Below are positions 15,556 to 53,991 of a stretch of 64,000 bases of DNA, piece after piece. The DNA is from Gammaproteobacteria bacterium (GTDB lineage Bacteria > Pseudomonadota > Gammaproteobacteria > S012-40). Location of the stretch: positions 22,053 through 86,052 of the forward strand of contig CAKKRP010000043.1 in the NCBI GenBank assembly GCA_919902765.1. Reading direction: 5' to 3'. Each line of letters begins with the position of its first letter. Position 1 is the stretch's first letter. The notes beneath the pieces were generated by a model that was given only the letters and a program-made list of their open reading frames with translations, was not told the DNA's origin and ran no database searches. A program made the position numbers and the translations under genes.

Positions 15556-15671
15556 GAACCTCCTGTTGCCAAAAAATCGTCAATCTTAGACATACTTATC
15601 CCTGGCCCTGGTATATTGGACAGGGATTGTTCGCTATTAGCGGCGATCAGTTATAAAATCTTAAGCCTATT

Positions 15672-16436
15672 ATGCAGTTAGCGCAATTTTTATTACGCAT
15701 TTATAGAGTTGCTAGAGGATATCGCATGCGACAGGCCGGTCACAGCACGCAAATCAAGCTATTGATCGCCGTGCTTGGTTGTTTGGGATGGCGCATGGTG
15801 GTTGGGGAAACGCTGGGTGATGGACGCCAAGCTTATCTACGCCGTGATTACGCCAAGGCCATGCGTATATTATTGCCGCAGGCGCAGCAAGGTATCGCCA
15901 AGGCGCAAATATTGGTCGGCCGCATGCATTTGGACAATGCGGGCGTCAAAATAGATGTGGGCCAAGCCTTGATGTGGTTTCAAGCGGCCGCCATGCAGGG
16001 GGATGGCGAGGGGCAGGTGGCCTATGCGCATATGTTTCATAATGGACAGGGGACTAAGCGCGATTTTGCGCAGGCCTTGCGTTGGTACAATGAAGCGGCG
16101 TTGCAAGGCGATGCGGAAGCGGCCTATGAGTTGGCCAATATGTATGCGGCGGGTGAGGGTACGCGACAAGATTTTACGGTTGCAACACGCTGGTATCACG
16201 CGGCTGCGGAAAAAAAACATGCCAGCGCCATGTTTCGTTTGGGTGTCGCCCATGCGGAAGGCCGAGGAATCGTACGTGATTATATAAACGCCTATGTTTA
16301 CCTTAAATTAGCGGAAAAATTCGGGGTCGCCAAGGCGCGTGCGGCGCTGAATGTGGTGACGCCTAATTTGACAAAAAAAGACTTAGCAACCGCTAAGCAA
16401 CGCATACAATTGTGGTTGAACGGACATCCTGCATAA
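15672..16436 (+). CDS. Sel1-repeat (TPR-like) protein
   Basis: Repeated about 36-aa units (…AQ.LVG.MH..G.GV..D…A..WF..AA.QGD..GQ…) typical of Sel1/HcpA-like repeats. The start may be an internal Met. Confidence 0.8.
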   Translation: MQLAQFLLRIYRVARGYRMRQAGHSTQIKLLIAVLGCLGWRMVVGETLGDGRQAYLRRDYAKAMRILLPQAQQGIAKAQILVGRMHLDNAGVKIDVGQALMWFQAAAMQGDGEGQVAYAHMFHNGQGTKRDFAQALRWYNEAALQGDAEAAYELANMYAAGEGTRQDFTVATRWYHAAAEKKHASAMFRLGVAHAEGRGIVRDYINAYVYLKLAEKFGVAKARAALNVVTPNLTKKDLATAKQRIQLWLNGHPA

Positions 16437-16549
16437 AAACGCCGCATATTAGTCATCTAAAGGCCCAATTAAGTCTGGACGACAAGTTACCCGAGACAAC
16501 TATTGTCCAACACTTTCGCGATGTTTAAATTCAAAAAGCAGGGGTTAGT

Positions 16550-17335
16550 ATGGATTTCCTGACGCAATTGCGACGCACATATATTGGCGAGCTGCCGGAA
16601 AGACTAAATTTATTGGAAGCGGATCTGCTCGCCGTTGAAAGCGTCGGCGACCCCGTTGGTGAAGTATACAACGCCATTTTTCGCAATGTCCATAGCATGA
16701 AAGGCAGCGGCGGCACCTACGGATTTTTTATCATCACCGCAATTTGTCATAAATTTGAAGATTATTTAACGTCGGCGTGCGGCGAAGGTACGCCGCATCT
16801 AAAAAAAGAAATAATCCCGAATTGTTTGCAATTCGTCGATCTGTTGCAAGAAGCCGCCGTCATCGGGATGCAGGGTCAAGATAATTTTAGCGCCCTCGAA
16901 CAAAAATTGGCGGCGCTTACGGATAAATTTATAACCAATACCCGACGCACGGCGATGATAGTCACCAATTCAAAATATATCGGGGGATTTTGTCAACGAA
17001 TCGCCGGTGAGTTGGGGGTCAAGGTGCAGCTTTCCGATAATAGTTATAACGCATTATTGCAATTGCTTTCGGCACCGTACGATATATTAATCACCGGCGC
17101 GGAAATGCCGTTGTTGACAGGTCGCGCATTAGTGGCGGCGGTAAAATTATCGGGACGAGCCGGTAAATCCACGCACACAATTTTGATTACAGCCAACACT
17201 GAAATTCTACAACAAGGCAATCGCAACACCGATCCAGATTACGTCCTATTAAAGGATGCAGACCTCGGATACCACCTAGAACAGTCTTTGCGCGCCATAT
17301 TGACTGCGGACGCGCGCAAAAAAATGGCCGGGTAA
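16550..17335 (+). CDS. Hpt-domain phosphotransfer protein with a C-terminal receiver-like (REC-like, possibly degenerate) domain
   Basis: N-terminal Hpt signature …FRNVHSMKGSGGTYGF… (phospho-His in the HSxKG context). C-terminal about 120 aa has a receiver-like alpha/beta pattern (…MIVTNS…ILITGAEMPLLTG…ILITAN…). Sits immediately upstream of the exopolysaccharide locus. Confidence 0.5.
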   Translation: MDFLTQLRRTYIGELPERLNLLEADLLAVESVGDPVGEVYNAIFRNVHSMKGSGGTYGFFIITAICHKFEDYLTSACGEGTPHLKKEIIPNCLQFVDLLQEAAVIGMQGQDNFSALEQKLAALTDKFITNTRRTAMIVTNSKYIGGFCQRIAGELGVKVQLSDNSYNALLQLLSAPYDILITGAEMPLLTGRALVAAVKLSGRAGKSTHTILITANTEILQQGNRNTDPDYVLLKDADLGYHLEQSLRAILTADARKKMAG

Positions 17336-17825
17336 GGATAGATAAATCTATCTGAAGGCGAGTTCATCGAGTGGCATCGGAAACATTGCCTTAAATCATA
17401 GAGTTAGCGCTTAGCGCTAAAGGTGTGTCTAATTTGACATAATATACATTATGCGTAGTATTACGACATGCCTAGGGCGCCTGCAAAACAAAGCGTAAAG
17501 AGCGTTGGGTTTCTGATGTTTCCAGGCCCAAATGCAACCAAAATGTTTCGCGCGACGTTTACTACACAGAGTCGCCAACGAAATTGTGTCTGAAATTGGA
17601 GACAGACACCCCTTGCGAAGACCGTCATATGCCTAATTTTAGCGAAGCGAAAAATAATGCCATTGGTCGTTCGTCTCTAATTAGAGACAGTTGTTTAAAT
17701 TTGATGCATTTGTTAAATTGCAAGCCCGTACAATAACAAACAAATTCCTTTTTAAGAAGTGGATGGCCTGGCCGGACACGGCTCAGTAGAAATTCCGTGA
17801 TCCCGAAAATTTAGGTGGAGTTCTC
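17336..17825. promoter_or_regulatory. 490-bp palindrome-rich intergenic/regulatory region upstream of the PilZ-GT2 synthase gene
   Basis: Contains a tandem AGCGCT-t-AGCGCT palindrome (17407-17419), GTGTCTAATTTGACAT (17425-17440), hairpin GTGTCTGaaattggagaCAGACAC (17586-17609) and the perfect 16-bp palindrome GTCTCTAATTAGAGAC (17673-17688). RBS-like GGTGGAG lies before the ATG at 17826. Confidence 0.4.
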
Positions 17826-19448
17826 ATGCCCAAAGTCGCTCACCTCGCTAGCGTTAACACCGATAGACGCGCATCACCACGACATAAAACCAATATCGCC
17901 TTGAAAATACGGCGTCAGGGCATGCTCGGTAAAAAAATATTGCACGGTAAAATCGTCGAACACAGCGAATACGGTGCGCAGTTAGTCGTCAAACAGCCGC
18001 TAAATAACGGCGATAAAATATATTTAGAATGGTCGAACGTAGTCGATGCGCGCAATGGAAACGCAGTCGATGCCGCCATTGCCGGTAAGGCGTCCGCCGT
18101 GGTGGTGCGTCAGATTTCTGCGTTAAATAACGGAAATAATCAAACATTACGCAGCGTTGGCGTCGCCTTGGATGTTGATCCGCCATTACGTAAGACGCGT
18201 CTGTTAGATAAGCTTACCTATGCCCTGCTTTGCGTGTTATTCGTATCGATCACCGCAAACATCGTATATTTAAAAGAGGTTAATGTAGAGTATTTTTGGT
18301 ATCAACCGTTTTTAAATATATATAGCTTAGTCGTTTCATTTTTTATTTTATCGAGATTCTTTTTGGCTATTTTTTATAGGCCGCCGAGCGATGTTCCTGG
18401 GTATTTGCCGACCGTTTCGGTCATTGTCGCTTGCAAAAATGAAGAAGACTCCATAGGGCGAACGTTGGATTGCATTTACGAATCCAATTACCCCTTGCAT
18501 CGTATGCAGGTCATCGCGGTCAACGATGGTTCTACGGATAGAACCTTGCAGGAAATGTTTAATGCGAAGCAACGCAATCCATCATTGATGGTTATAAATT
18601 TCGAAAAGAACCTCGGTAAGCGTCACGGCATGGCGGCAGGCGCGCGCGCAGCGACCGGCGAGATTTTGGTGTATATCGATTCAGACAGCTTTGTGCGAAA
18701 AAACACTATATACAAGATTGTGCAGGGCTTCCATGATGAAAGCGTGGGCGCCGTTTGTGGACACGCCGACGTACAAAACGCCAAAATAAACGCCCTGACA
18801 AAAATGCAGGACGTTCGATATTATATCGCCTTCCGCATTGTAAAGGCGGCGGAATCTATATTTTCCGCCGTTTCCTGTTGTTCCGGTTGTTTGGCGGCCT
18901 ATCGTCGTAGCTATGTACGTCCCATCTTGGATGTGTGGCTCAACCAAACCTTTATGGGGCAATCGGCGACATTTGGCGACGACCGTAGTTTGACTAATTA
19001 CATGTTGCGGCGCTACCGCGTGATTTACCATGCGGAGGCAATTTGCGCTACGATAGTGCCGGAAACGTATCGCGTTTTTTTTCGCCAGCAGCTACGCTGG
19101 AAAAAGTCATGGATACGCGAATGCTTCATCGCCTGCACATTTATGTGGCGCCGCCATCCGATGGCGGCGTTTTTCTTTTACCTTAGTGTGATATTTCCGT
19201 TGATGGCACCCGTCATCGTTTTTAATGCCGTCGCCATGCCTATTTTTTCCGGCACGATGGTCTCATTTGTGTACATATATGGGGCAATGCTTATTGCGGC
19301 GCTGAGCGGTGTGGTGTATTACGCCAAACATCGTGATAGCGTTTGGGTGTATGGTATGCATTTTACGCTATTCTATATGGCATTTTTGGTATGGCAAACT
19401 TATTACGCGCTGCTGACCGTTAGAAAAAATCATTGGGGCACACGTTAA
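17826..19448 (+). CDS. PilZ-domain-fused processive family-2 glycosyltransferase (chitin/PNAG/hyaluronan-synthase-like exopolysaccharide synthase)
   Basis: N-terminal about 120 aa has PilZ motifs (RRASPR = RxxxR; …EHSEYG… = (D/N/E)xSxxG). It is followed by TM helices and a GT2 domain (VSVIVACKNEE…, DGSTDRT, DSD 'DXD'). The processive-synthase QxxRW motif is present (FRQQLRWKKSW), and C-terminal TM helices follow. Confidence 0.7.
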   Translation: MPKVAHLASVNTDRRASPRHKTNIALKIRRQGMLGKKILHGKIVEHSEYGAQLVVKQPLNNGDKIYLEWSNVVDARNGNAVDAAIAGKASAVVVRQISALNNGNNQTLRSVGVALDVDPPLRKTRLLDKLTYALLCVLFVSITANIVYLKEVNVEYFWYQPFLNIYSLVVSFFILSRFFLAIFYRPPSDVPGYLPTVSVIVACKNEEDSIGRTLDCIYESNYPLHRMQVIAVNDGSTDRTLQEMFNAKQRNPSLMVINFEKNLGKRHGMAAGARAATGEILVYIDSDSFVRKNTIYKIVQGFHDESVGAVCGHADVQNAKINALTKMQDVRYYIAFRIVKAAESIFSAVSCCSGCLAAYRRSYVRPILDVWLNQTFMGQSATFGDDRSLTNYMLRRYRVIYHAEAICATIVPETYRVFFRQQLRWKKSWIRECFIACTFMWRRHPMAAFFFYLSVIFPLMAPVIVFNAVAMPIFSGTMVSFVYIYGAMLIAALSGVVYYAKHRDSVWVYGMHFTLFYMAFLVWQTYYALLTVRKNHWGTR

Positions 19449-21340
19449 GCCGCATGGGAAACGATAATGAAGCATTGAAGGCCCGAACTTTCGCTAAAGA
19501 CCGGCGCGCGTGGTTGATTTTGGTTATTGCAATAATAATTTCCGCGCTGTGGCTATATAACGATATACACACTATCGCCCACCCTCCCCCGGTTGCGCAT
19601 AGCGTGGTAGCGGAAAATGCGTCGCTAGCGGCGCTCTCCTACGGTCGGATAGTTGAAGAGCGCGACGGGCAAAATATTACTATCGCACAGTTGAAGGATC
19701 AATTAACCGCGCTCGCGCATGAGGGATATAAAACTATCTCGATGAGCGAGTTACGCGCGTTGCTGAGTGAAGGGAAAGGTATACCGCCTAAGTCATTGGT
19801 ATTGGTTTTTGAATATGGGTACCTAGATTATTTTCGTTTAGTGGATCCGTTGCTAGAACATTTAGGTTGGCGGGCCACCGTGTCTTTATTAACGACGCGA
19901 CAACAAGCCCACGACACGACGTATTTGTATTGGGATAGGCTGCGCAAAATGGTGAATTCCGGACGCTGGGAGATCGCTACAATGGGCCATAAAAGCATGG
20001 ATACCGTGCCGATTGACGGATCGGGGAACGTTGGCCGCTTTGCGTTTGATCGAGCTTGGCTGGCACAAAATAATCGTTTGGAATCGGATGAAGAGATGTC
20101 CAAACGTATCGTTAACGATTTCGATAAAAGCAGGTCATATATCGAGAAACAGGGATTCGACGCGATTGCAACGAGTTACCCGTTCGGTTTGTCGATGCCG
20201 GTGGCATCGAAAATCATTCATCAATTTGAGATGGAAAATATAAACAATGTTAAACCGAAATTGGCGTTTATAAACAATATCATGGGGCTGAACGATCATT
20301 ATTCAAATCCGGTTAGACTGAATAAACTGCATATCGCTCGGTCGTGGACGGGGAAAGTGTTGTTGGATAGGATACAGGTTACCACCCGTCCCACTTTGGA
20401 TTTAGGACACAACGTTTGGTTGGCGGATCGCGGCGATATGATAAATAACCCACATCATTTGACGCTTACCGGCGGTCAAACAAATAGCCTGTGGTTAGCG
20501 GGTAGTCAATGGGCGGGTTGTTGGAAGTTCAGCGCAAAGGTGCGCGCTAAGCATGGCGAATGGTGGATATCCCAAAGGGATTGGTCTACCGGAGCGGAAT
20601 GGCGATTTGGCGGAGGTGCTGAAGGTTTATCTATTAGACTTACCTCGCCGCAAGGTGAGGTATTAAGCGTTGCCCAAGCGGCGGGCGTCGGTTTATCGGC
20701 GACCGCGACGAGTTTAAGCATTATTAAACGTGGCGCCGGTGTTTGGATAGAACTGAATAGCCAGCCGTTATTCTCTATGCCGCAATATTTGCAAACAGCG
20801 ATACGTGGGGAAATGGGGATGTCGGCGTGGGCGTCTTCAGGCGAAGCGGACGTATATATCGACGATGTAAATTATTCGACCTTGCCATGCACAACGCTGG
20901 CGATTAACGGAAATCCATCGGAAGCGGAACTACAGACTCTCGCCGATGCCGCAGCCAATTTGGAGGCGATCAATGTACCCGTTTATGAAATAAATGGGAG
21001 CGCAATGAGAGCGCTTCCGTTAGATCAAGATTTATTACGTGTAATCGCCCATCGTTATGCGTTATCTATAGTCGCAGATATCAAAGTAAATACACAAAAT
21101 ACCGATGCTGAAAATTACCAGGCATGGATGGATAAAGTCATCATTCAAATAACACCTCAAGAATGGCGGGGTCTGGCGTTGCGGGTTGATGTGGCGGATC
21201 AAACGAAATGGTCACCCGCGTGGGTTGCTACGCTTGAAAAATTGCGGCAGCGCGCCAAAGGAATAGGCAAGGTTGTTGAAATAAACGATTCCGATATGCT
21301 GAGAAAAAGTCAACAAAGCGCGATTTCCGGTATTTACTAA
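19433..21340 (+). CDS. Membrane-anchored polysaccharide-deacetylase-like (CE4/PgaB-like) protein with divergent catalytic motifs plus a C-terminal beta-rich domain
   Basis: N-terminal TM helix, then a CE4-like segment (…SLVLVFEYGYLDYFRLVDPLLEHLGWRATVSLLT…) where the canonical TFDDG Asp-Asp is replaced by FEYG and the His motif by …ATMGHKS. About 350 aa of unassigned beta-rich sequence follows. Overlaps the upstream synthase gene by 16 nt (operonic). Confidence 0.5.
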   Translation: MGHTLSRMGNDNEALKARTFAKDRRAWLILVIAIIISALWLYNDIHTIAHPPPVAHSVVAENASLAALSYGRIVEERDGQNITIAQLKDQLTALAHEGYKTISMSELRALLSEGKGIPPKSLVLVFEYGYLDYFRLVDPLLEHLGWRATVSLLTTRQQAHDTTYLYWDRLRKMVNSGRWEIATMGHKSMDTVPIDGSGNVGRFAFDRAWLAQNNRLESDEEMSKRIVNDFDKSRSYIEKQGFDAIATSYPFGLSMPVASKIIHQFEMENINNVKPKLAFINNIMGLNDHYSNPVRLNKLHIARSWTGKVLLDRIQVTTRPTLDLGHNVWLADRGDMINNPHHLTLTGGQTNSLWLAGSQWAGCWKFSAKVRAKHGEWWISQRDWSTGAEWRFGGGAEGLSIRLTSPQGEVLSVAQAAGVGLSATATSLSIIKRGAGVWIELNSQPLFSMPQYLQTAIRGEMGMSAWASSGEADVYIDDVNYSTLPCTTLAINGNPSEAELQTLADAAANLEAINVPVYEINGSAMRALPLDQDLLRVIAHRYALSIVADIKVNTQNTDAENYQAWMDKVIIQITPQEWRGLALRVDVADQTKWSPAWVATLEKLRQRAKGIGKVVEINDSDMLRKSQQSAISGIY

Positions 21341-21347
21341 GAACTAC

Positions 21348-21457
21348 GTCAATAAAGCCACATACCTGTCGGCGGGACGCCGTGAATACGTCCCTGTAGG
21401 CTTGACGGCGGCATCCCTGCCGCCGACACCCGCCGACAGGTATGTGGCTTTATTGAC
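21348..21457. repeat. Perfect 29-bp inverted repeat (long hairpin) with a 52-nt structured loop, between the deacetylase-like gene and the TPR-porin gene
   Basis: GTCAATAAAGCCACATACCTGTCGGCGGG (21348-21376) and its exact reverse complement CCCGCCGACAGGTATGTGGCTTTATTGAC (21429-21457). The loop contains a nested GGCGGC…GCCGCC inverted repeat and a tandem CCGCCGACA duplication. Confidence 0.6.
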
Positions 21458-21528
21458 GACAACATTAGTAAGTTGGTTTTGTGCAAGTAATGTTTGCGGT
21501 GTTATTGTCCTTTTATGAGTAACGTATC

Positions 21529-24500
21529 GTGTTTTTAAGTCGAAATATTTACGTATCCATATTGGTCACTCTGGAGTTCGCGAGCTTGTCTGCGTACGCC
21601 CAATCGCGCGGCCAAGAGGCGGCGGATCAAGGTATTGCGCATCTGCGTGATAGTAAATTCGAACCCGCGATTGACGCGTTAAAAAAAGCGGTGGATTTAG
21701 ACCCCGCGTTATTGGGCGCATGGGAGGCATTGGGTTTTGGGTATAAAGGTGCCGGGAAATTCGAGCAAGCGATCAAGTGTTGGCAGTTGGTATTAAAACT
21801 GGAGCCAAAGAAGATATCGCTAATTAACGAGATTGCGCGTACGTCGGTTCTGAATGGAGCGCTAGAAAAATCGATTGTTTTTTATAAAAAAAGTCTGGAG
21901 GCTAATTCCGAACAAAATGCAGTGCGTATGGAGTTGGCGGATATCTACGCCAGGCTCGGAAAAAACGCCGAGGCGATTAGGCTATATGTTGCGCTATACA
22001 GTCAAGTTGATTTTATGTTTAAGGCACTCGCCAACTGCGTCGATTTATTGGAAAAAGATGACAAAATCGATAAAGCTATTCATGAAATAGAATATGTTGG
22101 CAAAAAAACCGGCCTTCCATTAGAAATAAAAAGCCGATTGGCGACATTATATACTCGCCAAGGCGATCGGCGATATGAAAAAGTCGATTTTTCAGGCGCA
22201 ATAATGGAATATAACAAGGCCCTTAAGGCGCAGCCGGATAACGTTCAGACGTTGGTGAATTTAGGTTGGGCGTATAGAAGGCTGGATCAGATAAAACCTG
22301 CCATTGATGCTTGGGATCGGTTGCTGAAAATTAATCAGGATGCCGTCAATGTACAGATATATGTTGCGGATGCCCATCATGATTTGGGTGATCGCGCGCG
22401 TTCTATATCCGGGTATACGCGTGCCTGGGACAAGGGTGACCGTATGCAAAGACGCAACATCGCGTATAAGTTGGCGCAAGAATATACGCTAGCAGGCAAA
22501 CCCGAGCAGGTAAAAGATTGGCTCCTGCGGGCGATTGAGCTCTGCGACCAGGATAGTTCATGGCATCGACGCGTCGCCGCTACTTATGTTAGCGCGGGGT
22601 TGATTATAGAGGGCCTTTTACAGTATGAAGAAATACTTTCTTCTCCGGTTGGAAACAACGTAAAAGATTCGCTGGCATACCTTTATGCCGCGCTTGCCGC
22701 CCAGCAGTATAAAGCCCAGGACTACGCGAATTCTGTTATTTCCTTTCATAAGGCGCTGCGCTTAGACAACAAAAACAACCAATATCTACGTGATCTGGGG
22801 TGGGCCTATTGGCAATTGCAAGACTGGAATAAGTGCGAAAAAACCTGGCGGGAACTGGCAGACAATAACCCGCAAAAAGCGGATGCCCAGTCCCTTTTGA
22901 CGCAGTTGTATTTGTATATTGAGCGCTATAGCGACGCCATCGGTTCCGCAAAAAGAAGTTTAGCCCTAAATGACAGTCAACCGGATGAATATTTGCGGTT
23001 GGCGAAGGCGATGTTATTGAGCAATCAATTTAAACCGGTGAAGGCGCTGGCTCTACAGATCGCCAATCGTTATCCGGACAACCAAGCTATTCAAATATTT
23101 TATGCTGAGACGCTCACCCGAATGCGGGAGTTTTCGGACGCCGCGCAACAGTGGTCGAAGCTCATTAAAACGTGTTCAGATCAAGAGCAAATTGCCGGAT
23201 ATCAAAAACGTTGGATGCTAGCTGCGTATGAAACAGGAGCCTACGACGAAGCCATTGCGGTAGCGAAACATTTGGCGAATACACCACATCCGTCAAAACA
23301 GGTTTTTAAATTTATTATCGACGACGCGATGGCATTAGAGAATTATGCTGAAGCGCGCCGGTGGCAGGAAAGACTGGTATATCGCTATCCAAGCGATAGC
23401 AACGCATGGCGCAATCTTTCTAATATCTTGACGAAAACAGGCGCGTGGCGTCAGGCAATCGACATTTTGTTGGATGCATTAGAGCGATTCCCGGATAATT
23501 TGCGACTATCCCTGGATTTAGGAGACCTCTATCTGGCGAACCAAGAACCGGACCGCGCATATAAAGTGTTTGAGGCGTTGTCGATAAATAAAAATAACTT
23601 AGTCGCCCATAACGGTAAGATACGCGCGCTGCTGGCGATGGGACGATATGAAGAAGCGGAAAAGGCGCTAAATGAAACGGATTTTAGCCACGCCAATAGT
23701 ATCGATATGGTATTCAGTCGCGCTGAATTGAAGGTGGCGTCAAATGATCTCGCGGCGGCAGAAGGATATCTCGAAACACTAACCAACGTCCCAAAGGGGG
23801 CTGTTTACGTTCCGGTTTTGCTTTACCATGGTATAAGCAATGGAAGGCGCAGCCGTAATATATTGTTGGAGACCTTTTCAGACCAAATGCGCGCGCTTGC
23901 TGCTGAAGGTTATGAACCTATTACCATGTTGCAATTATCGGACTACGTGGACGGGAAAGCGAACCTGCCCAATAAACCGATTATTATAACGTTTGACGAC
24001 GCCAGATTGGATTCATTTAGATTTGCCGATCCTGTTCTTAAAAAATATAATCTGAAGGCGACGATGTTCGTGCCCACTGAATACCCTATAGATGACCATC
24101 CATTTTTTGCAGATTGGAATATATTGCGACAATATAGCAACAGCGGTCGATGGGATATACAAAGTCACGGTCACTTTGGACATCGTATGGTGCGTGTAAA
24201 TCGCGAGGGCGATCGCGGCGGCTTTTTGGTCAATAAGGAGTGGCTGGAAGATTCAAAACGATATGAAACTTTAGAGGAATATGAAAAGCGTATCAAGGAT
24301 GAGTACGATATAAGTGTACGTCAAATTAAGTCGCATCTTGGCTATGAACCGGTTGCGTTCGCGTTTCCATTTTCCTTGAATGGAGATGATGGAGTAAGTA
24401 ACGTAGAGGATGCCTCGACTATCAATGAGCGGTACTTATTTAAGCATTTCAGATTCGGGTTCATTCAAGAAGGTAGCGGATATAATCTTGTAACAAGCGG

Positions 24501-25704
24501 CGACGCAACGCCACGCATTTTTCGAAGAACAGAGGTTCAAAAACAGTGGTCGGGTGATGAATTGATACGGCATCTAACGCTTAAGCACCCAGTCGTTCAA
24601 GGCCGGTTATCGCTGGCAAAAGCCTATATGTGGTCTGGTAGAATTTCCAAAGCTCGGCGGCTGTTTGAAGATCTCAGCGGTGAAGGCTCTTGGAAAAAAC
24701 AAGAGTCTTCTTATTATTTGGCCTCGCTGGAATATGATTTACAACGTTACCGTTCGGCGCAACAAGCGCTCGAGTCTTCCAATGAAGATAGGCGCATAGT
24801 TCCTAGTGGCGGCGCTGATCGTAGTGATTTGCAAAATAAAATATATTGGAGGATAAATCCCCGGTTTCAGATGAACAGTCTAATTACTCAGGACTCTAAC
24901 GCACGCAAAACACGTCTCTACGATATCACCTATCGTCATCCGCTGACCTTGCCTGTCGATTATTGGGTAAATATCGGCAATATGGTGTTGCAAGAAAATT
25001 CCGGCGCGGAGTTGCGGACACAGCAAGCTGCGTTAGGTCTGGGTACCGACGTACTGAGTAATATGTATGTATCCTGGTGGGCCCGCGCTAGACGTTCCCT
25101 TAATCTGCCGGACACCACAAATGCGTGGGCAAATATTATTTTTCGGCATGACGGCGCATTGGTTCGCGGGTATACCATGCTGGAGGATATAGACACGTAT
25201 GCGGCGCGGCTGCAACGGGTGCAATCCAGGGGCGTAGGGATGACCTATCGCCAAGTATATAACACCGCATGGTCTACCGAAATAAATGGCGAGGTGGCTA
25301 GTTTAAGTGACGGTAATCAACGCTACAATGCTAAAGGCACTATTCTATATCGATTGCCTTCCGCACGACTGTGGCGTATAGGAAGTGAGGCGAACTTCGC
25401 GGATGCTAAATATGACATGATTGATAATCAAAACGCACCATACTATGCGCAAAAAAATATTCGATCAATACAAGGCGTGCTAATGTATGAAAATCGTAGC
25501 GGTAGGTATTTACACATGGGGTTTGAAATGTCGGCAGGATTGGCGCAAGGAGCGCATTTTCAAAATGGAATTATTGGACGAGGGATTTTTGATGTCACGA
25601 TAGAATGGTTTAGACGCGTTAGAACCGGGGCCAATGCCGAATATTATCACGGTACCGATTATAGAAGTGTGCGCGCAGGTGTGGTCGTGGAGGCTAGATT
25701 TTAG
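21529..25704 (+). CDS. Large exopolysaccharide export/modification protein: N-terminal TPR repeats + CE4 polysaccharide deacetylase domain + C-terminal outer-membrane beta-barrel (PgaA/PgaB-like fusion)
   Basis: Signal peptide. About 700 aa of TPR-like repeats. A CE4 domain with canonical …IIITFDDARLDSF… and …SHGHFGH… motifs. A C-terminal about 400-aa alternating-strand region ends …VVVEARF with an OMP-type terminal Phe. Confidence 0.6.
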   Translation: MFLSRNIYVSILVTLEFASLSAYAQSRGQEAADQGIAHLRDSKFEPAIDALKKAVDLDPALLGAWEALGFGYKGAGKFEQAIKCWQLVLKLEPKKISLINEIARTSVLNGALEKSIVFYKKSLEANSEQNAVRMELADIYARLGKNAEAIRLYVALYSQVDFMFKALANCVDLLEKDDKIDKAIHEIEYVGKKTGLPLEIKSRLATLYTRQGDRRYEKVDFSGAIMEYNKALKAQPDNVQTLVNLGWAYRRLDQIKPAIDAWDRLLKINQDAVNVQIYVADAHHDLGDRARSISGYTRAWDKGDRMQRRNIAYKLAQEYTLAGKPEQVKDWLLRAIELCDQDSSWHRRVAATYVSAGLIIEGLLQYEEILSSPVGNNVKDSLAYLYAALAAQQYKAQDYANSVISFHKALRLDNKNNQYLRDLGWAYWQLQDWNKCEKTWRELADNNPQKADAQSLLTQLYLYIERYSDAIGSAKRSLALNDSQPDEYLRLAKAMLLSNQFKPVKALALQIANRYPDNQAIQIFYAETLTRMREFSDAAQQWSKLIKTCSDQEQIAGYQKRWMLAAYETGAYDEAIAVAKHLANTPHPSKQVFKFIIDDAMALENYAEARRWQERLVYRYPSDSNAWRNLSNILTKTGAWRQAIDILLDALERFPDNLRLSLDLGDLYLANQEPDRAYKVFEALSINKNNLVAHNGKIRALLAMGRYEEAEKALNETDFSHANSIDMVFSRAELKVASNDLAAAEGYLETLTNVPKGAVYVPVLLYHGISNGRRSRNILLETFSDQMRALAAEGYEPITMLQLSDYVDGKANLPNKPIIITFDDARLDSFRFADPVLKKYNLKATMFVPTEYPIDDHPFFADWNILRQYSNSGRWDIQSHGHFGHRMVRVNREGDRGGFLVNKEWLEDSKRYETLEEYEKRIKDEYDISVRQIKSHLGYEPVAFAFPFSLNGDDGVSNVEDASTINERYLFKHFRFGFIQEGSGYNLVTSGDATPRIFRRTEVQKQWSGDELIRHLTLKHPVVQGRLSLAKAYMWSGRISKARRLFEDLSGEGSWKKQESSYYLASLEYDLQRYRSAQQALESSNEDRRIVPSGGADRSDLQNKIYWRINPRFQMNSLITQDSNARKTRLYDITYRHPLTLPVDYWVNIGNMVLQENSGAELRTQQAALGLGTDVLSNMYVSWWARARRSLNLPDTTNAWANIIFRHDGALVRGYTMLEDIDTYAARLQRVQSRGVGMTYRQVYNTAWSTEINGEVASLSDGNQRYNAKGTILYRLPSARLWRIGSEANFADAKYDMIDNQNAPYYAQKNIRSIQGVLMYENRSGRYLHMGFEMSAGLAQGAHFQNGIIGRGIFDVTIEWFRRVRTGANAEYYHGTDYRSVRAGVVVEARF

Positions 25705-25739
25705 CGCATTTACTAACGTAGTTCTTAGTAAGCGGAAAA

Positions 25740-26948
25740 TCATTTTTTCGTCTTCAAATAGCGGTTGAGCTCAATCGGTAATTGGGGGTCTTCCCTACCC
25801 AGGCTCCAGAACATTATATTTGTATATCCTAAGGCGTGGATGGTCTTTATTTTCGTCAAAATGGAAATGCTATCCTCGTAGTATGCGGTAAATTGCTTGC
25901 CGTTTTCTTTGTACTTGATGTAGGGGACATTAGAAACGTCCGCGCGAAAACTCTTGGCGTTCGTATTGTTATGTAATATATTCACTTCATCAAATTGAAT
26001 ACCGCGCGTCTGTTCCCCTTCCCAAACTATGCCGCTAAGTTTTAATATCGGAATAATTTTATTTTTTTGACATGTAGTTTCGGCGTATTGTAACACCGAG
26101 CTTATCCATTCTGGAGTGGCGATGGGTCCGGCGCCTGTTTTGCCGCTAAATTGATTATAAAGCATAATTTGCAAGCGATCCGTCACTTCACATAATTCTC
26201 TCCAGTTCATCGCGCCAGCGCCGTTCCAGGCAACGTCTTTGCTTTTGGGCTGCACGGATAACGAGAGTAAAAGTTTATTGCGGTGTAAAGCGCGCGCCAG
26301 TTCTCTAGAAAATTCTGTAAAATAACCACGGTCAGCGATGGAGAGATTTTCATAATCTATATCTATGCCCCGTAAACCAAGCAACCGCGCTAAGTCAACT
26401 ATGTCGTTAATATGACGCGTTCTTTTGTCGCTATCGGCAAGTAAGGAATGAACGATATGCGGGTCCTTCAGTTGCGTTTGACCTGTTGTCGTCGCCGATA
26501 CATCGTTTACTATAGTAAGCCAATAGCGTGAATTGGAATTTCCAGTTGAGCGCGCTTCTAATATATTCGTGAGCTTAGGGTTTGCAAATGCAATCTCACC
26601 TTTGTCCGTGAGCTGCGCGGCGAAGTAAAATACATCAAATAAATTTTCATAGGCGCGCATCGCATGGTGACCGTTAGGCAAGTCCCAGTAGGTTAGCCAC
26701 GCGCCGATTTTTAACAAGCCCGGATCGTCACCTTCCCTAGCCTCAATTGTGCCAGCAGAAAATATAGTACAAACAAGAATTACGCAACCGCATAGCCTAC
26801 GGAGGATGGTGTCCATAACGACTAGTAGACTAAAAAGAGGTTGAGGCGCATATTCATGCCTTGTTGTTTTTTTGAGTGTGATATTGTACGACGACATTAT
26901 AATCTTCAAATATCGCCCACAACAGAAACAGATATCCGGCCGCTGCAA
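25740..26948 (-). CDS. GH18-like glycoside hydrolase (chitinase-fold) with signal/anchor sequence
   Basis: …LGLRGIDIDYENL… matches the GH18 DxxDxDxE catalytic motif; N-terminal hydrophobic segment; convergent with the exopolysaccharide genes. Confidence 0.5.
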   Translation of the reverse strand: MQRPDICFCCGRYLKIIMSSYNITLKKTTRHEYAPQPLFSLLVVMDTILRRLCGCVILVCTIFSAGTIEAREGDDPGLLKIGAWLTYWDLPNGHHAMRAYENLFDVFYFAAQLTDKGEIAFANPKLTNILEARSTGNSNSRYWLTIVNDVSATTTGQTQLKDPHIVHSLLADSDKRTRHINDIVDLARLLGLRGIDIDYENLSIADRGYFTEFSRELARALHRNKLLLSLSVQPKSKDVAWNGAGAMNWRELCEVTDRLQIMLYNQFSGKTGAGPIATPEWISSVLQYAETTCQKNKIIPILKLSGIVWEGEQTRGIQFDEVNILHNNTNAKSFRADVSNVPYIKYKENGKQFTAYYEDSISILTKIKTIHALGYTNIMFWSLGREDPQLPIELNRYLKTKK

Positions 26949-27222
26949 GCGGTCTCGATAGCCATAATCCCGCCATAATCGCCGTGACGCCTGCCAATGT
27001 GTAAATCAACGGCCTGTTAAAACGATGTGTACGATAGCTGCTATAGACACCTATTGTCACTACCCCTAAAGTGAAGATCAGTGCGGGTATAAGTAACGCA
27101 TCATTCAATAAATATTCCGCGCCTTGTGTGCGCACATAAACAATAACCGGTGCAACGCTAAAGGCGATGGCCCCTATGATCGCGCAAAAAAAATATCCCG
27201 TAAACTGAATAAAAAAATTCAT
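26854..27222 (-). CDS. Small integral membrane protein (4 predicted TM helices), hypothetical
   Basis: 122-aa hydrophobic ORF directly upstream of, and overlapping, the GH18-like gene on the minus strand; no recognisable motifs. Confidence 0.35.
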   Translation of the reverse strand: MNFFIQFTGYFFCAIIGAIAFSVAPVIVYVRTQGAEYLLNDALLIPALIFTLGVVTIGVYSSYRTHRFNRPLIYTLAGVTAIMAGLWLSRPLAAAGYLFLLWAIFEDYNVVVQYHTQKNNKA

Positions 27223-27282
27223 CCCGCCACCCTCGCCTCGATATTCGAATATTTCGATGCGGGTGATTATAACCTTAAAGGA

Positions 27283-28296
27283 CTACAAGGGGAAATGGCA
27301 CGCGACTTTATGCCCTGAGGCGCAATCTTGTAACGTTGGGGACTGCTGAGTACATGCTTGGGGTTGCCCTTTTTCGGCAAACACGGGGCACCGTGGGGCG
27401 AAACGACAGCCCTTGTCTTCCTCCGTAAAATCAAACACATCCCATGCCGCACCGGCCTTGGCATTGTGTTGTTGCACCTTGAGCGCGGCGGCGCTTTGTT
27501 TGACATGCAGGGATGACCACAGGATTTCAGTATACGGATGACGCGGGTGTTGCGCGACTTTTTTGGCGTCGCCGATTTCAACGATACGCCCCAGATACAT
27601 TACCGCCACGCGATGGCTGACCAGTTCCATTAAGCGCAAATCGTGCGTAATAAACAGATATGACAAACCTAATTGTTTTTGCAAATCCACCATCAAATTG
27701 ATCACCTGCGCTTGTATCGAGACATCGAGTGCGCTTGTGGGCTCGTCGGCGACGATAAATTTCGGGTTTACCGATAGCGTGCGGGCGATGCCGACGCGGC
27801 GTTTTTCACCGCCCGATAATTCCGATGGAAAATTGGACAGTTTGTTTTTTTTCAGATTGACCATTTCCAGCAATTCGTACATGCGTGCGGTGACGGCACT
27901 GTCATCTAAATGTTTGTTGTGGATTTTGATGGTCTCGCCGAGTATTTGGCCGATGCGCATTTTTGGATTCAATGCCGCGTCCAAATCTTGGAATATCATT
28001 TGGATCTTAGAACGCATAGGCCTGAATTCACGATTCGACATCGGTACTATGTCAATGCCATCATAAACAATATTGCCCGAGCTGGGTTGAGAAAGCTTCA
28101 AAATCAGCTTACCGGTAGTCGTTTTTCCACACCCCGACTCGCCGACTAAACCTAAGGTTTCATGAGTATTCACGTCAAAACTGACGCCGTCCACTGCGGG
28201 TATGGTCTGGCGTTGCATGAACGACATCAAACCCTTGCCCTGTATAAAATGCTTCTTTAAGTCAGTGACTTTTAATATGGCGTCGCCCATATCCAT
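27283..28296 (-). CDS. ABC transporter ATP-binding protein (oligopeptide/dipeptide, OppF/DppF-like)
   Basis: Walker A GESGCGKTT, ABC signature LSGGEKRRVGIAR, Walker B FIVADEPTSALD, C-terminal Cys-rich oligopeptide extension. Confidence 0.85.
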   Translation of the reverse strand: MDMGDAILKVTDLKKHFIQGKGLMSFMQRQTIPAVDGVSFDVNTHETLGLVGESGCGKTTTGKLILKLSQPSSGNIVYDGIDIVPMSNREFRPMRSKIQMIFQDLDAALNPKMRIGQILGETIKIHNKHLDDSAVTARMYELLEMVNLKKNKLSNFPSELSGGEKRRVGIARTLSVNPKFIVADEPTSALDVSIQAQVINLMVDLQKQLGLSYLFITHDLRLMELVSHRVAVMYLGRIVEIGDAKKVAQHPRHPYTEILWSSLHVKQSAAALKVQQHNAKAGAAWDVFDFTEEDKGCRFAPRCPVFAEKGQPQACTQQSPTLQDCASGHKVACHFPL

Positions 28297-28326
28297 ACTC
28301 CTGAATCGCTCTCGTTAGCCACGCGC

Positions 28327-29430
28327 CTAAACACCTGCAAAATGCCAACATCTGATCTTGTGCCCGTCAGAGACGGTTGCCAACGGGGGTTCTTCATTGA
28401 GGCACATCTTTTCTATAGACTTATTAATGCGTTGACAGCGCGATGCGAAACGACAACCACGTGGAACGTTTATCGTGTCTAATACTTCGCCGTCGATAGA
28501 ATTTAAATGCCCTTGGCTAGACATATTGTCCTCCCTGGGTATAGATTTTAACAACGCCTCGGTATAAGGATGCGATTTTCCATCCGCGTGATCGATCACG
28601 GCTTGCGCAGGGCCGGATTCCATGACACGCCCGCCATACATCACGGCGATTTTATTCGACAGCCGCCCTATTACACCCATATCATGGCTGATCAGCACGA
28701 TGGTCACCCCGGTTTGGGCGCGCAATTCTTCCAATAAATCGGCAATGCGTGCTTGTATCGTCGCATCCAACCCGGTGGTGGGTTCATCGGCGATGAGCAA
28801 TTTCGCCTCCGATGACAAGGCGGTCGCGATCATCGCACGCTGACACATACCACCGGAAAGTCCGTAGGGATAGTTGTAAAAACGCAGTTGGGGTGAATCT
28901 ATTTTAACGCGTTCCAACCAGTATAAGGCGCGCTCTTTGGCCTCTTTGCGACTTTTATATTGCGTGTGGCGTGTAATGTTCTCGACAATTTGGTGGCCGA
29001 TGGTGAAAAACGGATTCATCGCCGATTTAGGATTTTGAAAAATCATGGCGATTTCTTTGCCGCGTATGCCTAGCATGTTTTTTTCTAATCTGCGTTGCCA
29101 TGCCAAATCCGTTTTTTCTACGCTCATGATACGTCCATCGTTTTTAGACACTTGCACATGATCCTGTAAACCCGCCAGCAGATTAATACGCGCCTGTTCT
29201 TGCTGATACCACACCTGACCGGTAATGATACCAGGCCGCGCCGCAATGAGCCCCATGATGGACAGCATGCTGACGCTCTTGCCGCTACCGCTTTCGCCAA
29301 CAATGCCTAAGGTGTCGCCTTTGTTTACCTCCAAATCTACGCCGTCTACGGAGCGTATAAAGGCCTGTTTGGTGCGCGAATAAAAATAGGTGCGTAGTTC
29401 TTCAATTTTCAACAACGGGGAATTGTTCAT
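28327..29430 (-). CDS. ABC transporter ATP-binding protein (OppD/DppD-like)
   Basis: Walker A GESGSGKSV, signature LSGGMCQRAMIA, Walker B LLIADEPTTGLD, C-terminal extension with Cys cluster. Confidence 0.85.
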   Translation of the reverse strand: MNNSPLLKIEELRTYFYSRTKQAFIRSVDGVDLEVNKGDTLGIVGESGSGKSVSMLSIMGLIAARPGIITGQVWYQQEQARINLLAGLQDHVQVSKNDGRIMSVEKTDLAWQRRLEKNMLGIRGKEIAMIFQNPKSAMNPFFTIGHQIVENITRHTQYKSRKEAKERALYWLERVKIDSPQLRFYNYPYGLSGGMCQRAMIATALSSEAKLLIADEPTTGLDATIQARIADLLEELRAQTGVTIVLISHDMGVIGRLSNKIAVMYGGRVMESGPAQAVIDHADGKSHPYTEALLKSIPREDNMSSQGHLNSIDGEVLDTINVPRGCRFASRCQRINKSIEKMCLNEEPPLATVSDGHKIRCWHFAGV

Positions 29431-30320
29431 GATTGGCGCTTCCCTTCTAGCATATTATTTAGACCGTCACCTAACAAATAGAAGCCTAACACGGTGAACA
29501 TGATCGCCATGGCCGGGATGGTAGACGACCACAATTGGCCTTGTAATAAATAATTCGCGCCTTGTTGCACCATGTTGCCCCACGAAGGCGTGGGCTCCTG
29601 AACGCCGAATCCCAAATAACTCAAGGCGCTTTCCAACAAGATGGCCTCGCCCATGCCTAAAGTGGCTTGAATAATCAAATAACTTCTACAGTTGAACCAT
29701 AGGATATGTTTGAAAATTATTCTCGCATCCGGAATGCCCAACGCGATTGCAGACTCCACAAAGTTTTTTTGGCGCAACATGGATATTTTTCCTTTTATCA
29801 GTTGCGACACCAGCGGCGCGTTTGTGACACCCAATACCATCATGATGTAATAGATATCGGGTTTAAAAGCGGCAACCACCAGCAACATCAATATCAAACG
29901 CGGAAACGAATCTATAATATTCGTAATATAAGTGACTACCGTTTCATATTTGTTCCCATAATAGCCGCTCAAAATACCGAATATTCCACCGAGCAGGATG
30001 GCCACCGCAATGTACATCAAACCGGGAACGAAATACGCTTTGATGACGAGTATTAAGCGGGGCAGCGTGTCGCGGCCCATGAAATCCGTGCCCAATAAAT
30101 GGCCCGGAGCGCCCGGACCCGCGAGCATTAGCTCTAACTGCATTTCCTCGGGGTCATGCGGCAACCATCCGAATATCGCCATCAAATAGGCGCAGACCAC
30201 CATTAACAATATAACGATGCCGTATACGACATAGGCAATATCGCGTTTATCCGTGCGCTGCAAAATGCTGAGCTCGGAATACTCGCTGACGGTTGTTTGC
30301 GTTTGCGCATATTGGGTCAT
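29427..30320 (-). CDS. ABC transporter permease (OppC/DppC-like)
   Basis: 297-aa polytopic membrane protein with the EAA-like loop region (…ESAIALGIPDARIIFKHILW…); 4-nt overlap with the downstream ATPase gene. Confidence 0.8.
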   Translation of the reverse strand: MTQYAQTQTTVSEYSELSILQRTDKRDIAYVVYGIVILLMVVCAYLMAIFGWLPHDPEEMQLELMLAGPGAPGHLLGTDFMGRDTLPRLILVIKAYFVPGLMYIAVAILLGGIFGILSGYYGNKYETVVTYITNIIDSFPRLILMLLVVAAFKPDIYYIMMVLGVTNAPLVSQLIKGKISMLRQKNFVESAIALGIPDARIIFKHILWFNCRSYLIIQATLGMGEAILLESALSYLGFGVQEPTPSWGNMVQQGANYLLQGQLWSSTIPAMAIMFTVLGFYLLGDGLNNMLEGKRQS

Positions 30321-30333
30321 TCGCCGTTACCTT

Positions 30334-31320
30334 TTAGCTCGTCTTGGTTTCTTGAGAGGCGCGTGGATTGACTATTACGTATAGTGTTTTTTGAAGTAAA
30401 CTTGTCAATCGCACGATCAAGGCCGTGACCAAGGTGATACACATGATCACAGGGTAGTCACGATCTTGGGCCGCTTGCCAGGCCATACGTCCTATGCCCG
30501 GCCAATTGAAGATTTGTTCTACGATGATGGCGCCGCCAATCACAAAAGGTATTTTCGATGCGATCATTTCGCTCACCGGGATAATCAATGCCTCGGTCAG
30601 CGCGTGTTTCCACACCGATACGCCCTTCGCGCGCGCCGTTCTGACATAATCTTCGCTGAATACACGCGATATCTCGTCGCGCAAAAAACGTACGGTCTCA
30701 CTGATAATGCCGCTACCCAGTCCAAGCATAAATACCGGCAACATCATTTGTGTGAAATTCATAGACTCGCCCGTTGCGAGGCCTATAGGCAGGGTGTTAA
30801 AAAATCGTGTGTAGATATAAATGACGATGTAGGCAGACCAAAATAGCGGTACCGCCGAGGTTGTATACGCAAACATCATCAGTACCCAACCGAGCCTATC
30901 TGTGCCGCGCTTGGCGAGATAAATGGCGATTGGTAACGCGATCATTAATGAAAAAAACATGGCCCCAAAGGTCAGATAAAAGGTATTTTTAGCCAGTTTT
31001 GTCACCTCACCGAGCACGGGTTGCCCCGAACGCAAAGAAGTGCCAAAATCGCCGTTAAATAATTTAACCAACCATGACCAATATTGGCCGTACCAGGTGT
31101 TTGAAATACCTAAATTCCGCATCATTTCTTCACGCTGCGCGTCAGACAGAACTTGCCCGCCGAACACGGCCGCCAGTGGATCGCCTGGCGCGGAATATAA
31201 CACCGCGAATACCACCAAGCTGACGCCGATTAATAAGAAAAAGGTGACATATAGCTCACGGGTGAGATATAGAACAACGGGCTTTGCAGATCTCGACACC
31301 ATCATTTGTGTGACCATCAA
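30334..31320 (-). CDS. ABC transporter permease (OppB/DppB-like)
   Basis: 328-aa membrane protein, …ARAKGVSVWKHALTEALIP… EAA-motif region typical of OppB/DppB permeases. Confidence 0.8.
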   Translation of the reverse strand: MMVTQMMVSRSAKPVVLYLTRELYVTFFLLIGVSLVVFAVLYSAPGDPLAAVFGGQVLSDAQREEMMRNLGISNTWYGQYWSWLVKLFNGDFGTSLRSGQPVLGEVTKLAKNTFYLTFGAMFFSLMIALPIAIYLAKRGTDRLGWVLMMFAYTTSAVPLFWSAYIVIYIYTRFFNTLPIGLATGESMNFTQMMLPVFMLGLGSGIISETVRFLRDEISRVFSEDYVRTARAKGVSVWKHALTEALIIPVSEMIASKIPFVIGGAIIVEQIFNWPGIGRMAWQAAQDRDYPVIMCITLVTALIVRLTSLLQKTLYVIVNPRASQETKTS

Positions 31321-31386
31321 CCTCTTTAGGCGACACCCAAACCGGCGTATAGCCGATCTGCGTGTCGAGATAGAATCGGTGTATGT

Positions 31387-35741: not shown

Positions 35742-35750
35742 CGTCTTCCT

Positions 35751-38315: not shown

Positions 38316-38343
38316 GGCCTTTCCTCCTGTCCCAAATTCATTT

Positions 38344-50869: not shown

Positions 50870-51044
50870 TTCACAAGTCTAACTCATTGATTTTCACAGT
50901 GCTAGTGCCTTACTGCCGCTAACCTATATTTGAAAGTGATGCGTAGCGTTCTTCGCGCTTCATAGCGGTCTATTATGTATAAAAAACAAATAGTTAAATA
51001 CCCGCTAACCGGCCCTCAATTTGATGAGTACACATGATTAGCGC
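50870..51044 (-). promoter_or_regulatory. CRISPR leader (between cas2 stop and first/newest repeat)
   Basis: 175-bp non-coding, relatively AT-rich segment directly between cas2 (ends 51045) and the first repeat (50838-50869). The repeat orientation matches cas-operon transcription on the minus strand. Confidence 0.5.
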
Positions 51045-52575: not shown

Positions 52576-52607
52576 AACACCTTCCTCGCTGATTGTTACG
52601 CGTTCGC

Positions 52608-53891: not shown

Positions 53892-53991
53892 TTCCTCGGA
53901 AGGGTGAGTTATGGGATAAATAAGACTCTATGGTCGCTAAATTTCACGTCTTTACTATTTACGGTAACGGCAACGCTATCCAACGGAAAAT

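Follow-up and report, generated by a model that had tools for sequence, protein, structure and literature searches.

What polymer does an exopolysaccharide locus make when its periplasmic and outer-membrane parts resemble those of the Pga system and its synthase resembles hyaluronan and chitin synthases? This question is raised by a locus in a 64,000-nucleotide stretch of a gammaproteobacterial contig (CAKKRP010000043.1, positions 22,053 to 86,052; GenBank assembly GCA_919902765.1), which we call the window and whose own coordinates we use throughout. Three head-to-tail genes on the plus strand span 17826-25704 and encode proteins of 540, 635, and 1391 amino acids (aa), and a 402-aa open reading frame (ORF) on the minus strand converges on them. 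We consider it likely, with a probability of roughly 0.6, that these genes form a complete synthase-dependent system, gated by cyclic di-GMP (c-di-GMP), for a chitin-like polymer of beta-1,4-linked N-acetylglucosamine (GlcNAc) that would be partly de-N-acetylated during export and trimmed by a glycoside hydrolase of family 18 (GH18). A first-pass annotation had described a synthase-dependent exopolysaccharide locus for a GlcNAc-type polymer, a view that our analysis supports with a gene set more coherent than the one described there. The findings named as able to overturn that description did not arise: neither an N-terminal region unlike PilZ with a synthase grouping among non-GlcNAc transferases, nor a C-terminal region of the 1391-aa protein other than a beta-barrel. 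The features of the locus, including domains of glycosyltransferase family 2 (GT2) and carbohydrate esterase family 4 (CE4), tetratricopeptide repeats (TPR), and similarities to hyaluronan synthases (HAS), are as follows.

17826-19448, plus strand: processive GT2 synthase, inner membrane, HAS/NodC/chitin-synthase type, with an N-terminal PilZ domain, as predicted from Pfam, NCBIfam, PDB, AlphaFold2 (AF2), and motifs
17862-18185, plus strand: predicted PilZ-type beta-barrel, residues 13-120, putative c-di-GMP receptor with R15xxxR19 and E45xS47xxG50 (Pfam, profile, AF2)
18408-19106, plus strand: cytoplasmic GT2 catalytic domain, residues 195-427 (Glyco_tranf_2_3 at 195-426, 2.7e-25; NodC model at 193-540, 1.6e-57)
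19433-21340, plus strand: ORF2, 635 aa (628 aa from an alternative start), with a signal-anchor helix, a PgaB-like CE4 domain without catalytic or metal residues, and a tail of about 350 aa of uncertain fold
21529-25704, plus strand: predicted outer-membrane export scaffold, 1391 aa, with a signal peptide, about 750 aa of TPR, CE4, two or three helical repeats, a 16-strand barrel, and a terminal Phe
23806-24648, plus strand: CE4 de-N-acetylase domain of the scaffold, residues 760-1040, with LLYHG, TFDD, HGHxxH, and AFPFS motifs
24862-25704, plus strand: porin barrel of the scaffold, 16 predicted strands, residues 1112-1391 (AF2, Foldseek)
25740-26816, minus strand (longest ORF to 26948, 402 aa): GH18 hydrolase, secreted or periplasmic, 358 aa from M45, convergent and 36 bp from the operon stop

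All ORFs named in the first-pass annotation were present where it had placed them, as judged from the ORF list and translations. An exact-sequence look-up returned only the database names "glycosyltransferase family 2 protein", "tetratricopeptide repeat protein", and "Hpt domain-containing protein". The synthase stop and the ORF2 start overlap by 16 nucleotides (nt), and this overlap suggests translational coupling of the two genes.

The synthase gave the first indication of the polymer. It matched Pfam Glycos_transf_2 at 2e-28 and Chitin_synth_2 at 4e-21 (75.5 bits against a cut-off of 27), and the top NCBIfam model was NodC, followed by PgaC, with the cellulose synthase model marginal. Scores for both leading models fell below their cut-offs, at 195.2 against 550 bits for the NodC equivalog TIGR04242 and 134.4 against 422.3 bits for PgaC/IcaA TIGR03937. 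The nearest PDB sequences were Xenopus HAS1 (8smm, 1e-33) and then Chlorella-virus HAS (CvHAS). An AF2 model built on 53 homologues (mean pLDDT 86, pTM 0.82) placed, in order, a beta-barrel, a long helix, two membrane helices, a GT-A domain, and four C-terminal helices, and Foldseek ranked this model nearest to hyaluronan synthases (4e-22; 21-23% identity), then BcsA (3e-14), then the fungal and oomycete chitin synthases (Chs1; 4e-12). The GT2 assignment of the first-pass annotation, made on QxxRW and DXD motifs, was borne out, as DGSTD, D285-S-D287, G384DDR, Q421QLRWKKSW, and the C-terminal W537GTR540 were invariant across the 53 homologues; we take GDDR, QQxRWxKSW, and the C-terminal WGTR to be signatures of the HAS/NodC/chitin-synthase clade. 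Many homologues carry the label "hyaluronan synthase" from the Joint Genome Institute (JGI), and the best match among GTDB species representatives reached 57%. Because the Pfam and NCBIfam scores, the nearest structures, the fold ranking, and the invariant motifs point the same way, the protein is predicted to be a processive, channel-forming GT2 enzyme of the HAS/NodC/chitin-synthase clade and not a PgaC.

The first-pass annotation also placed a PilZ domain at the N terminus of the synthase. The protein itself scored below threshold for PF07238 (17.8 against 22.5 bits), but 22 of the 53 homologues matched this family at E<=0.01, the best at 1.5e-11, and a profile of 29 N termini matched the PilZ domain of Rhodobacter BcsA at E 4e-4 over chain residues 575-623, which presumably include the RxxxR and DxSxxG motifs of BcsA. 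R15 was conserved in 52, R19 in 48, and G50 in 52 of the 53 sequences. Position 47 was Ser in 30/53 and Gly in 17/53, and position 45 was Asp or Asn in 33/53 and Glu, as in the synthase here, in 12/53. The AF2 model formed a small beta-barrel at residues 20-115. Since the homologue matches, the BcsA profile match, the conserved motifs, and the modelled barrel agree, we regard the N-terminal domain as a PilZ domain by sequence and model, and its motifs suggest that it may bind c-di-GMP.

The TPR-deacetylase-porin fusion proposed for the 1391-aa protein is borne out by both sequence and modelling. TPR repeats occupy residues ~30-750, where many TPR families matched in Pfam, up to 2.5e-34. The Pfam CE4 match followed at residues 812-954 (9e-14, 52 bits against a cut-off of 23.1), and by sequence this domain was nearest to deacetylases of poly-N-acetylglucosamine (PNAG) systems, BpsB (3.8e-19) and PgaB (2.4e-13). 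In the alignment to these enzymes, TFDD corresponds to the catalytic and metal-binding Asp pair and HGHxxH to the two metal-binding His residues; LLYHG, TFDD, HGHxxH, and AFPFSEAG are kept in almost all of 27 homologues, and the domain is thus predicted to be catalytically intact, as had been claimed. An AF2 model of residues 760-1391 (pLDDT 80.6, pTM 0.61) was compared by Foldseek, with the CE4 part matching PgaB (4f9j, 3e-14) and IcaB (4wcj). The CE4 domain and a few helical repeats are followed in the model by 16 long strands, which begin at residue 1112 and run to the C terminus (~280 residues; block pLDDT mostly 80-95), in agreement with the beta-barrel called in the first-pass annotation. 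This barrel matched PgaA (4y25, 1e-12, TM-score 0.76 on the target), BcsC (9b8a/6tzk, 1e-11), and PelB (9h80_M, 4e-8). The protein scored 24.6 against a cut-off of 366.65 for the PgaA model TIGR03939; its fold matches 4y25, and BcsC and PelB match similarly. It ends in Phe, and the C-terminal aromatic residue is conserved in homologues with the consensus YRF. A GTG start at 21529 yields a signal peptide (…SLSAYA|Q) that is lost with the start of the 1372-aa database entry, and the deposited start is probably 19 codons too short (21529-21586).

Between these two genes lies ORF2, which the first-pass annotation overlooked. Its sequence reads as an N-terminal signal-anchor helix at residues ~26-42 followed by a CE4 fold (Pfam 28.1 bits against a cut-off of 23.1), and its family profile matched the BpsB and PgaB deacetylase domains at 5e-39, with a PgaB TIGR03938 score of 71.8 against a cut-off of 321.9 bits. 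In alignment with PgaB, TFDD is replaced by FEYG, both metal-binding His residues by Met, and the catalytic-acid His by Gly, with residue roles as established for PgaB. The second, metal-binding Asp was absent from 24/24 homologues, in which the His motif was mostly degenerate. Because the catalytic and metal residues are lost in ORF2, and the second Asp in all the aligned homologues, ORF2 is a conserved pseudo-deacetylase by sequence, with a predicted anchor in the inner membrane. No significant match for the C-terminal ~350 aa was found by PDB profile, Pfam, or hhalign searches. Weak hints in this tail were a middle part resembling Laminin-G/ConA, with a non-significant Laminin_G match in 3/33 members, and a terminal GH18-like fragment (PDB profile E 0.004) with DxDxE replaced; against the GH18 family, hhalign gave a probability of 70% over 59 columns, and we made no assignment. 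The homologue set came from related loci and from an exhaustive search of 1.84 billion representatives, which found 62 matches below 1e-30 and ~45 full-length clusters at 50% identity, where a word-indexed search had given only 4; the family is real and not large. Some ORF2 relatives are embedded in proteins of 1250-1680 aa (P0223-P0236), so that further fusion variants of the system exist.

The convergent gene encodes a GH18 enzyme (Pfam 1.4e-20, 74.6 bits against a cut-off of 29.6) with the catalytic DxDxE intact as D196-I-D198-Y-E200 (GIDIDYEN). G[IV]D[ILV]DYE was present in 24/24 aligned homologues, in which MLYN and W-S-L-G motifs were also conserved, and the nearest solved structures were the small bacterial GH18 enzymes 5jh8 and 4q6t, along with YdhD and YaaH, N-acetylglucosaminidases of the spore cortex. 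Translation probably begins at M45 (26816), a start that gives a signal peptide and a protein about as long as its homologues (349-363 aa). The first-pass annotation was right about the family and the motif, but its statement that GH18 replaces the GH153 domain of PgaB is too simple, since a PgaB-like protein, ORF2, is present at the locus.

We then asked how far these four genes travel together. We gathered 87 related loci by looking up five homologous synthases and scanning the species genomes of GTDB; 27 of these loci were informative, meaning that they belonged to the clade at >=50% identity and extended far enough to judge. The genes for the synthase, ORF2, and the TPR-CE4-barrel protein were adjacent in all 27, with the latter two directly downstream of the synthase, and the GH18 gene adjoined the TPR-CE4-barrel gene in 25/27, in either orientation. 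At least six phyla or classes are represented among the informative loci: Gamma- and Deltaproteobacteria, Nitrospirota, Manganitrophaceae, Nitrospinota, Acidobacteriota, and Verrucomicrobiia. The acidobacterium Holophaga foetida DSM 6591 (locus L028) was the only cultured strain in the scan with the full module. The module is a conserved four-gene set found mostly in uncultured environmental bacteria. No conserved fifth gene, PgaD-like and nodA-like genes included, was found in the 27 loci with a minimum ORF of 70 aa, a limit below which a very small ORF, like a very divergent one, could escape. Apart from a UDP-sugar dehydrogenase in 5 loci, the other recurrent neighbourhood clusters were artefacts, antisense shadow ORFs lying within the main genes, and we set them aside. 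In a more distant clade (Planctomycetes-Verrucomicrobia-Chlamydiae [PVC] group, Elusimicrobia, and Actinobacteria), loci mostly held a synthase without the N-terminal region together with a CE4 gene; a few retained the N-terminal region, and none had the C-terminal part of ORF2 or the barrel.

Together, these components suggest a route from precursor to secreted polymer. Each has a counterpart in the known synthase-dependent systems, namely a gated synthase in the inner membrane, a partner in the periplasm, a TPR-porin, an enzyme that modifies the polymer, and a hydrolase. The GT2 synthase, as a member of its family, would join UDP-GlcNAc into a beta-1,4 chain and thread it through its own membrane channel, and by analogy with BcsA the N-terminal PilZ domain would tie this synthesis to c-di-GMP. 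ORF2 would then most probably receive the chain on the periplasmic side and bind it without catalysis, in a role like that of BcsB or of the C-terminal domain of PgaB; this hand-over is the weakest step of the model. The 1391-aa protein would provide both a periplasmic TPR scaffold and an outer-membrane pore, and its built-in CE4 domain would strip some N-acetyl groups in passage to leave a partly cationic, chitosan-like polymer. Finally, GH18 could cut beta-1,4-GlcNAc stretches, either clearing stalled polymer or setting chain length; PgaB-GH153, BcsZ, PelA, and AlgL are the trimming hydrolases of known systems. We infer a partly deacetylated beta-1,4-GlcNAc product because of the synthase clade, the presence of a GlcNAc-polymer de-N-acetylase, and the beta-1,4 specificity of GH18. 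The HAS/NodC/chitin-synthase clade makes beta-1,4-GlcNAc-containing chains, and characterised GH18 enzymes cleave beta-1,4 GlcNAc linkages (CAZy). A beta-1,4 rather than a beta-1,6 linkage is likewise favoured by the higher score of NodC over PgaC, the HAS relatives, WGTR, the lack of a PgaD-like gene, and GH18.

Several observations weigh against this proposal. The evidence is entirely computational; it establishes domain content, folds, and the conservation of the gene set, and from these we deduce the sugar, its linkage, c-di-GMP binding, and the role of ORF2. The nearest solved synthases make hyaluronan, a heteropolymer, and both CE4 domains and the barrel are nearest to proteins of PNAG systems. 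The barrel model is based on only 10 sequences, the PilZ score of the synthase itself is sub-threshold, and a Glu stands in it for the Asp or Asn of DxSxxG. Neither a diguanylate cyclase nor a phosphodiesterase turned up in those window ORFs that were scanned. In 5/27 loci the synthase is immediately preceded by a UDP-sugar dehydrogenase gene, and the GH18 gene here, which converges on the operon and follows a Dpp/Opp-type ABC importer, might be part of a catabolic unit.

The first alternative is that the product is PNAG, a beta-1,6-GlcNAc polymer, made by a Pga system that has been rearranged by fusion of the PgaB deacetylase into PgaA. This reading, which we consider unlikely, draws on the CE4 domains matching PgaB/BpsB best, the barrel matching PgaA best, and a score of 134 bits for the PgaC model. 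However, the Pga models of NCBIfam scored far below their cut-offs (PgaC 134/422, PgaB 94/322, PgaA 25/367), NodC outscored PgaC, the nearest solved relatives of the synthase are hyaluronan synthases, and a PgaD-like gene is not conserved. The known PNAG hydrolases also belong to GH153 and GH20 and not to GH18. The term "Pga-like" in the first-pass annotation consequently fits the periplasmic and outer-membrane parts of the locus but not the synthase (NodC 195 bits over PgaC 134, with HAS relatives).

A hyaluronan-like polymer, or another heteropolymer with uronic acids, we likewise regard as improbable for this locus. Class I hyaluronan synthases are the best solved relatives of the synthase, and the JGI labels and the upstream dehydrogenase would fit such a product, but the dehydrogenase is absent at this locus and in 22/27 related loci. 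In addition, identity to HAS is only 21-23%, NodC is the top NCBIfam match, and the universal or near-universal partners of the synthase, an active and a degenerate GlcNAc-polymer deacetylase domain and GH18, fit a GlcNAc homopolymer. The loci bearing the dehydrogenase, of the UDP-glucose/GDP-mannose-dehydrogenase family, are L003 (8306-9982), L028, L029, L031, and L032, from Holophaga and two deltaproteobacterial metagenome-assembled genomes, and in these lineages the polymer may carry uronic acids.

Still less probable, in our view, is that GH18 stands outside the system and serves chitin catabolism with the adjacent ABC importer. The gene runs opposite to the operon, in the same direction as this Dpp/Opp-type transporter and immediately behind it, and some chitobiose importers belong to this transporter class. 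Yet GH18 adjoins the TPR-CE4-barrel gene in 25/27 loci from several phyla, in either orientation and without the transporter. It is very improbable that the synthase makes short chito-oligosaccharides like NodC, for signalling and not for a matrix, since the best-scoring curated family (NodC, whose partner NodB is also a CE4 enzyme) reached only 195 against a cut-off of 550, a nodA-like gene is not conserved, and a TPR scaffold of ~750 residues with a porin of the PgaA/BcsC/PelB type is a hallmark of high-molecular-weight polymer export. We retain a partly deacetylated, chitin-like beta-1,4-GlcNAc polymer as the preferred product of the locus.

Upstream of the operon, a Sel1-repeat protein and an Hpt protein are followed by a 490-bp gap before the synthase, and two features of this region were recorded.

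16550-17335, plus strand: Hpt protein with a degenerate receiver-like domain (Pfam Hpt 2.5e-11; receiver domain [REC] 19 bits against a cut-off of 30)
17336-17825, plus strand: upstream intergenic region of 490 bp, likely the operon promoter region

The Hpt/REC-like protein noted upstream in the first-pass annotation is indeed encoded there, but its REC match is below the cut-off and it is not in the conserved module. In its translation the HxxKG histidine is intact, and the phospho-acceptor position of the receiver, read against the CheY D57-x-x-M-P pattern, is Gly. The protein formed a single-member cluster in a collection of 15 billion proteins and had no counterpart in 85 related loci. The Hpt/REC, Sel1, and MerC-like genes were all rejected as module members, since few or none of the related loci have them (Sel1 matches occurred in two). 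The 122-aa MerC-like ORF beyond GH18 had no counterpart in related loci; the span of 17826-27222 originally given for the locus rightly takes in the operon and GH18, but its end includes this ORF as well. One sigma-70-like site at 17434-17461 (TTGACA-16-TAGTAT) is a positional hint only, and promoter-like site counts in the upstream region were not above those of shuffled sequences in the promoter scan. An Rfam scan of 15000-28000 found no c-di-GMP riboswitch or other family, with Ysr224 sub-threshold at 25 against 70 bits.

The Dpp/Opp-type importer at 27283-32985 on the minus strand consists of a family-5 solute-binding protein, two permeases, and two ATPases; it directly precedes the MerC-like ORF and GH18 and shares their orientation. 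Oligosaccharides freed by GH18 might be taken up by this importer, which does not adjoin the module in related loci. Next to it, a minus-strand run of envelope-type genes at 33010-38829, where the AT skew is strongly negative, encodes 161-aa and 854-aa proteins with CarboxypepD_reg/PEGA/TPR domains, a TolB-like PD40 beta-propeller protein (419 aa), and a 491-aa protein without a significant Pfam match. The region from ~16000 to 40000, which holds the polysaccharide operon, the ABC importer, and the large PEGA/TPR gene, has a GC content of 0.45-0.48 against 0.51-0.56 in both flanks, and this low-GC block may have been horizontally acquired. Farther along, the minus strand carries a complete CRISPR-Cas locus of type I-C (47909-60573 overall), with Cas1, Cas4, Cas7, Csd1/Cas8c, Cas5d, and Cas3 at 51341-60573; the adjoining array, starting from 47909, contains its 32-nt repeat (GTTTCAATCCACGCGCTCGCGAAGAGCGCGAC) at least 45 times at a period of ~66 nt. 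At the window edge lies a protein with a GH3 (NagZ-like) N-terminal domain (62981-63997, minus strand); besides this protein and GH18, the scanned window ORFs yielded no glycoside hydrolase.

Chitin and chitosan count as polymers of eukaryotes, which bacteria are known chiefly to degrade. Our analysis raises the possibility, which we put forward tentatively and at somewhat less than even odds, that many Gram-negative lineages of environmental importance (Nitrospirota, Nitrospinota, Acidobacteriota, Manganitrophaceae, and some Proteobacteria) secrete a true chitin or chitosan exopolysaccharide through a dedicated c-di-GMP-gated pathway. Such a pathway would be a further class beside those for cellulose, PNAG, alginate, and Pel, with the modifying deacetylase incorporated in the outer-membrane porin and an inactive deacetylase taken on as partner in the inner membrane. 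If so, biofilm biology would gain a new matrix polymer, the aggregation of hard-to-culture nitrifiers and acidobacteria would have a candidate explanation, and the reading of "chitin" signals in soils and sediments would be affected. For the exopolysaccharide and c-di-GMP fields, the locus offers natural experiments on synthase-dependent assembly: a synthase with its PilZ gate at the end where BcsA has none, a deacetylase placed covalently between TPR scaffold and pore, and a pseudo-enzyme as periplasmic partner. The full module in Holophaga foetida DSM 6591 makes the question testable in a cultured organism.

The suggestion that the system is undescribed agrees with our searches. We found no description of this architecture in the searchable full-text literature, PilZ surveys included, a body of text that mostly leaves out subscription journals. 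An operon survey of synthase-dependent systems does not mention chitin or hyaluronan, and the fusions reported there are of other kinds. The "bacterial chitin synthases" of Dickeya, Pectobacterium, and others share with this locus the proposal of a chitin-type exopolysaccharide in bacteria, but these are eukaryote-derived division-1 chitin synthases in a DUF1501/DUF1800 and epimerase context, a different family without PilZ, CE4, TPR-porin, or GH18 (Goncalves et al. 2016, PMC5122149).

Among characterised synthases, the class I HAS enzymes (CvHAS and XlHAS1), NodC, and chitin synthases share with the synthase here the fold, the DxD, GDDR, QxxRW, and WGTR motifs, and the arrangement of two N-terminal and several C-terminal membrane helices. 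In contrast, identity is only 21-23%, and the N-terminal PilZ domain and an operon with a deacetylase, a porin, and GH18 are features that these relatives lack. The BcsA-BcsB-BcsC-BcsZ system is alike in having a PilZ domain fused to the synthase, a membrane-anchored periplasmic partner, a TPR and 16-strand porin, and a dedicated hydrolase. Here, however, the PilZ domain is N-terminal, before the first membrane helix, and not C-terminal as in BcsA, the partner is a pseudo-CE4 protein and not BcsB, and the polymer would be deacetylated. The Pel system resembles the locus in placing a deacetylase at the TPR scaffold of a porin (PelA on PelB), in its cationic, partly deacetylated amino-sugar polymer, and in the barrel match to PelB, but here the deacetylase is a covalent part of the porin, the synthase is GT2 as opposed to the GT4 enzyme PelF, and the presumed c-di-GMP receptor is not PelD.

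PgaABCD/HmsHFRS, the poly-beta-1,6-GlcNAc system, shares the logic of a GT2 synthase, periplasmic CE4 de-N-acetylation, a TPR scaffold with a 16-strand porin, a glycoside hydrolase, and c-di-GMP dependence, and its CE4 and barrel folds are the nearest solved matches. The two differ in several respects: the synthase here is of the HAS/NodC/chitin-synthase type, with a fused PilZ domain as presumed c-di-GMP receptor and without PgaD; the active deacetylase lies inside the porin protein; the PgaB-like protein is dead and anchored in the inner membrane, where PgaB joins active CE4 and GH153 in one lipoprotein; and GH18 stands in place of GH153 as the hydrolase family. By its synthase, its lack of PgaD, and its PgaB-like protein, the locus is not a member of pgaABCD, and it is predicted to work like a Pga, Bcs, or Pel system while being none of them.

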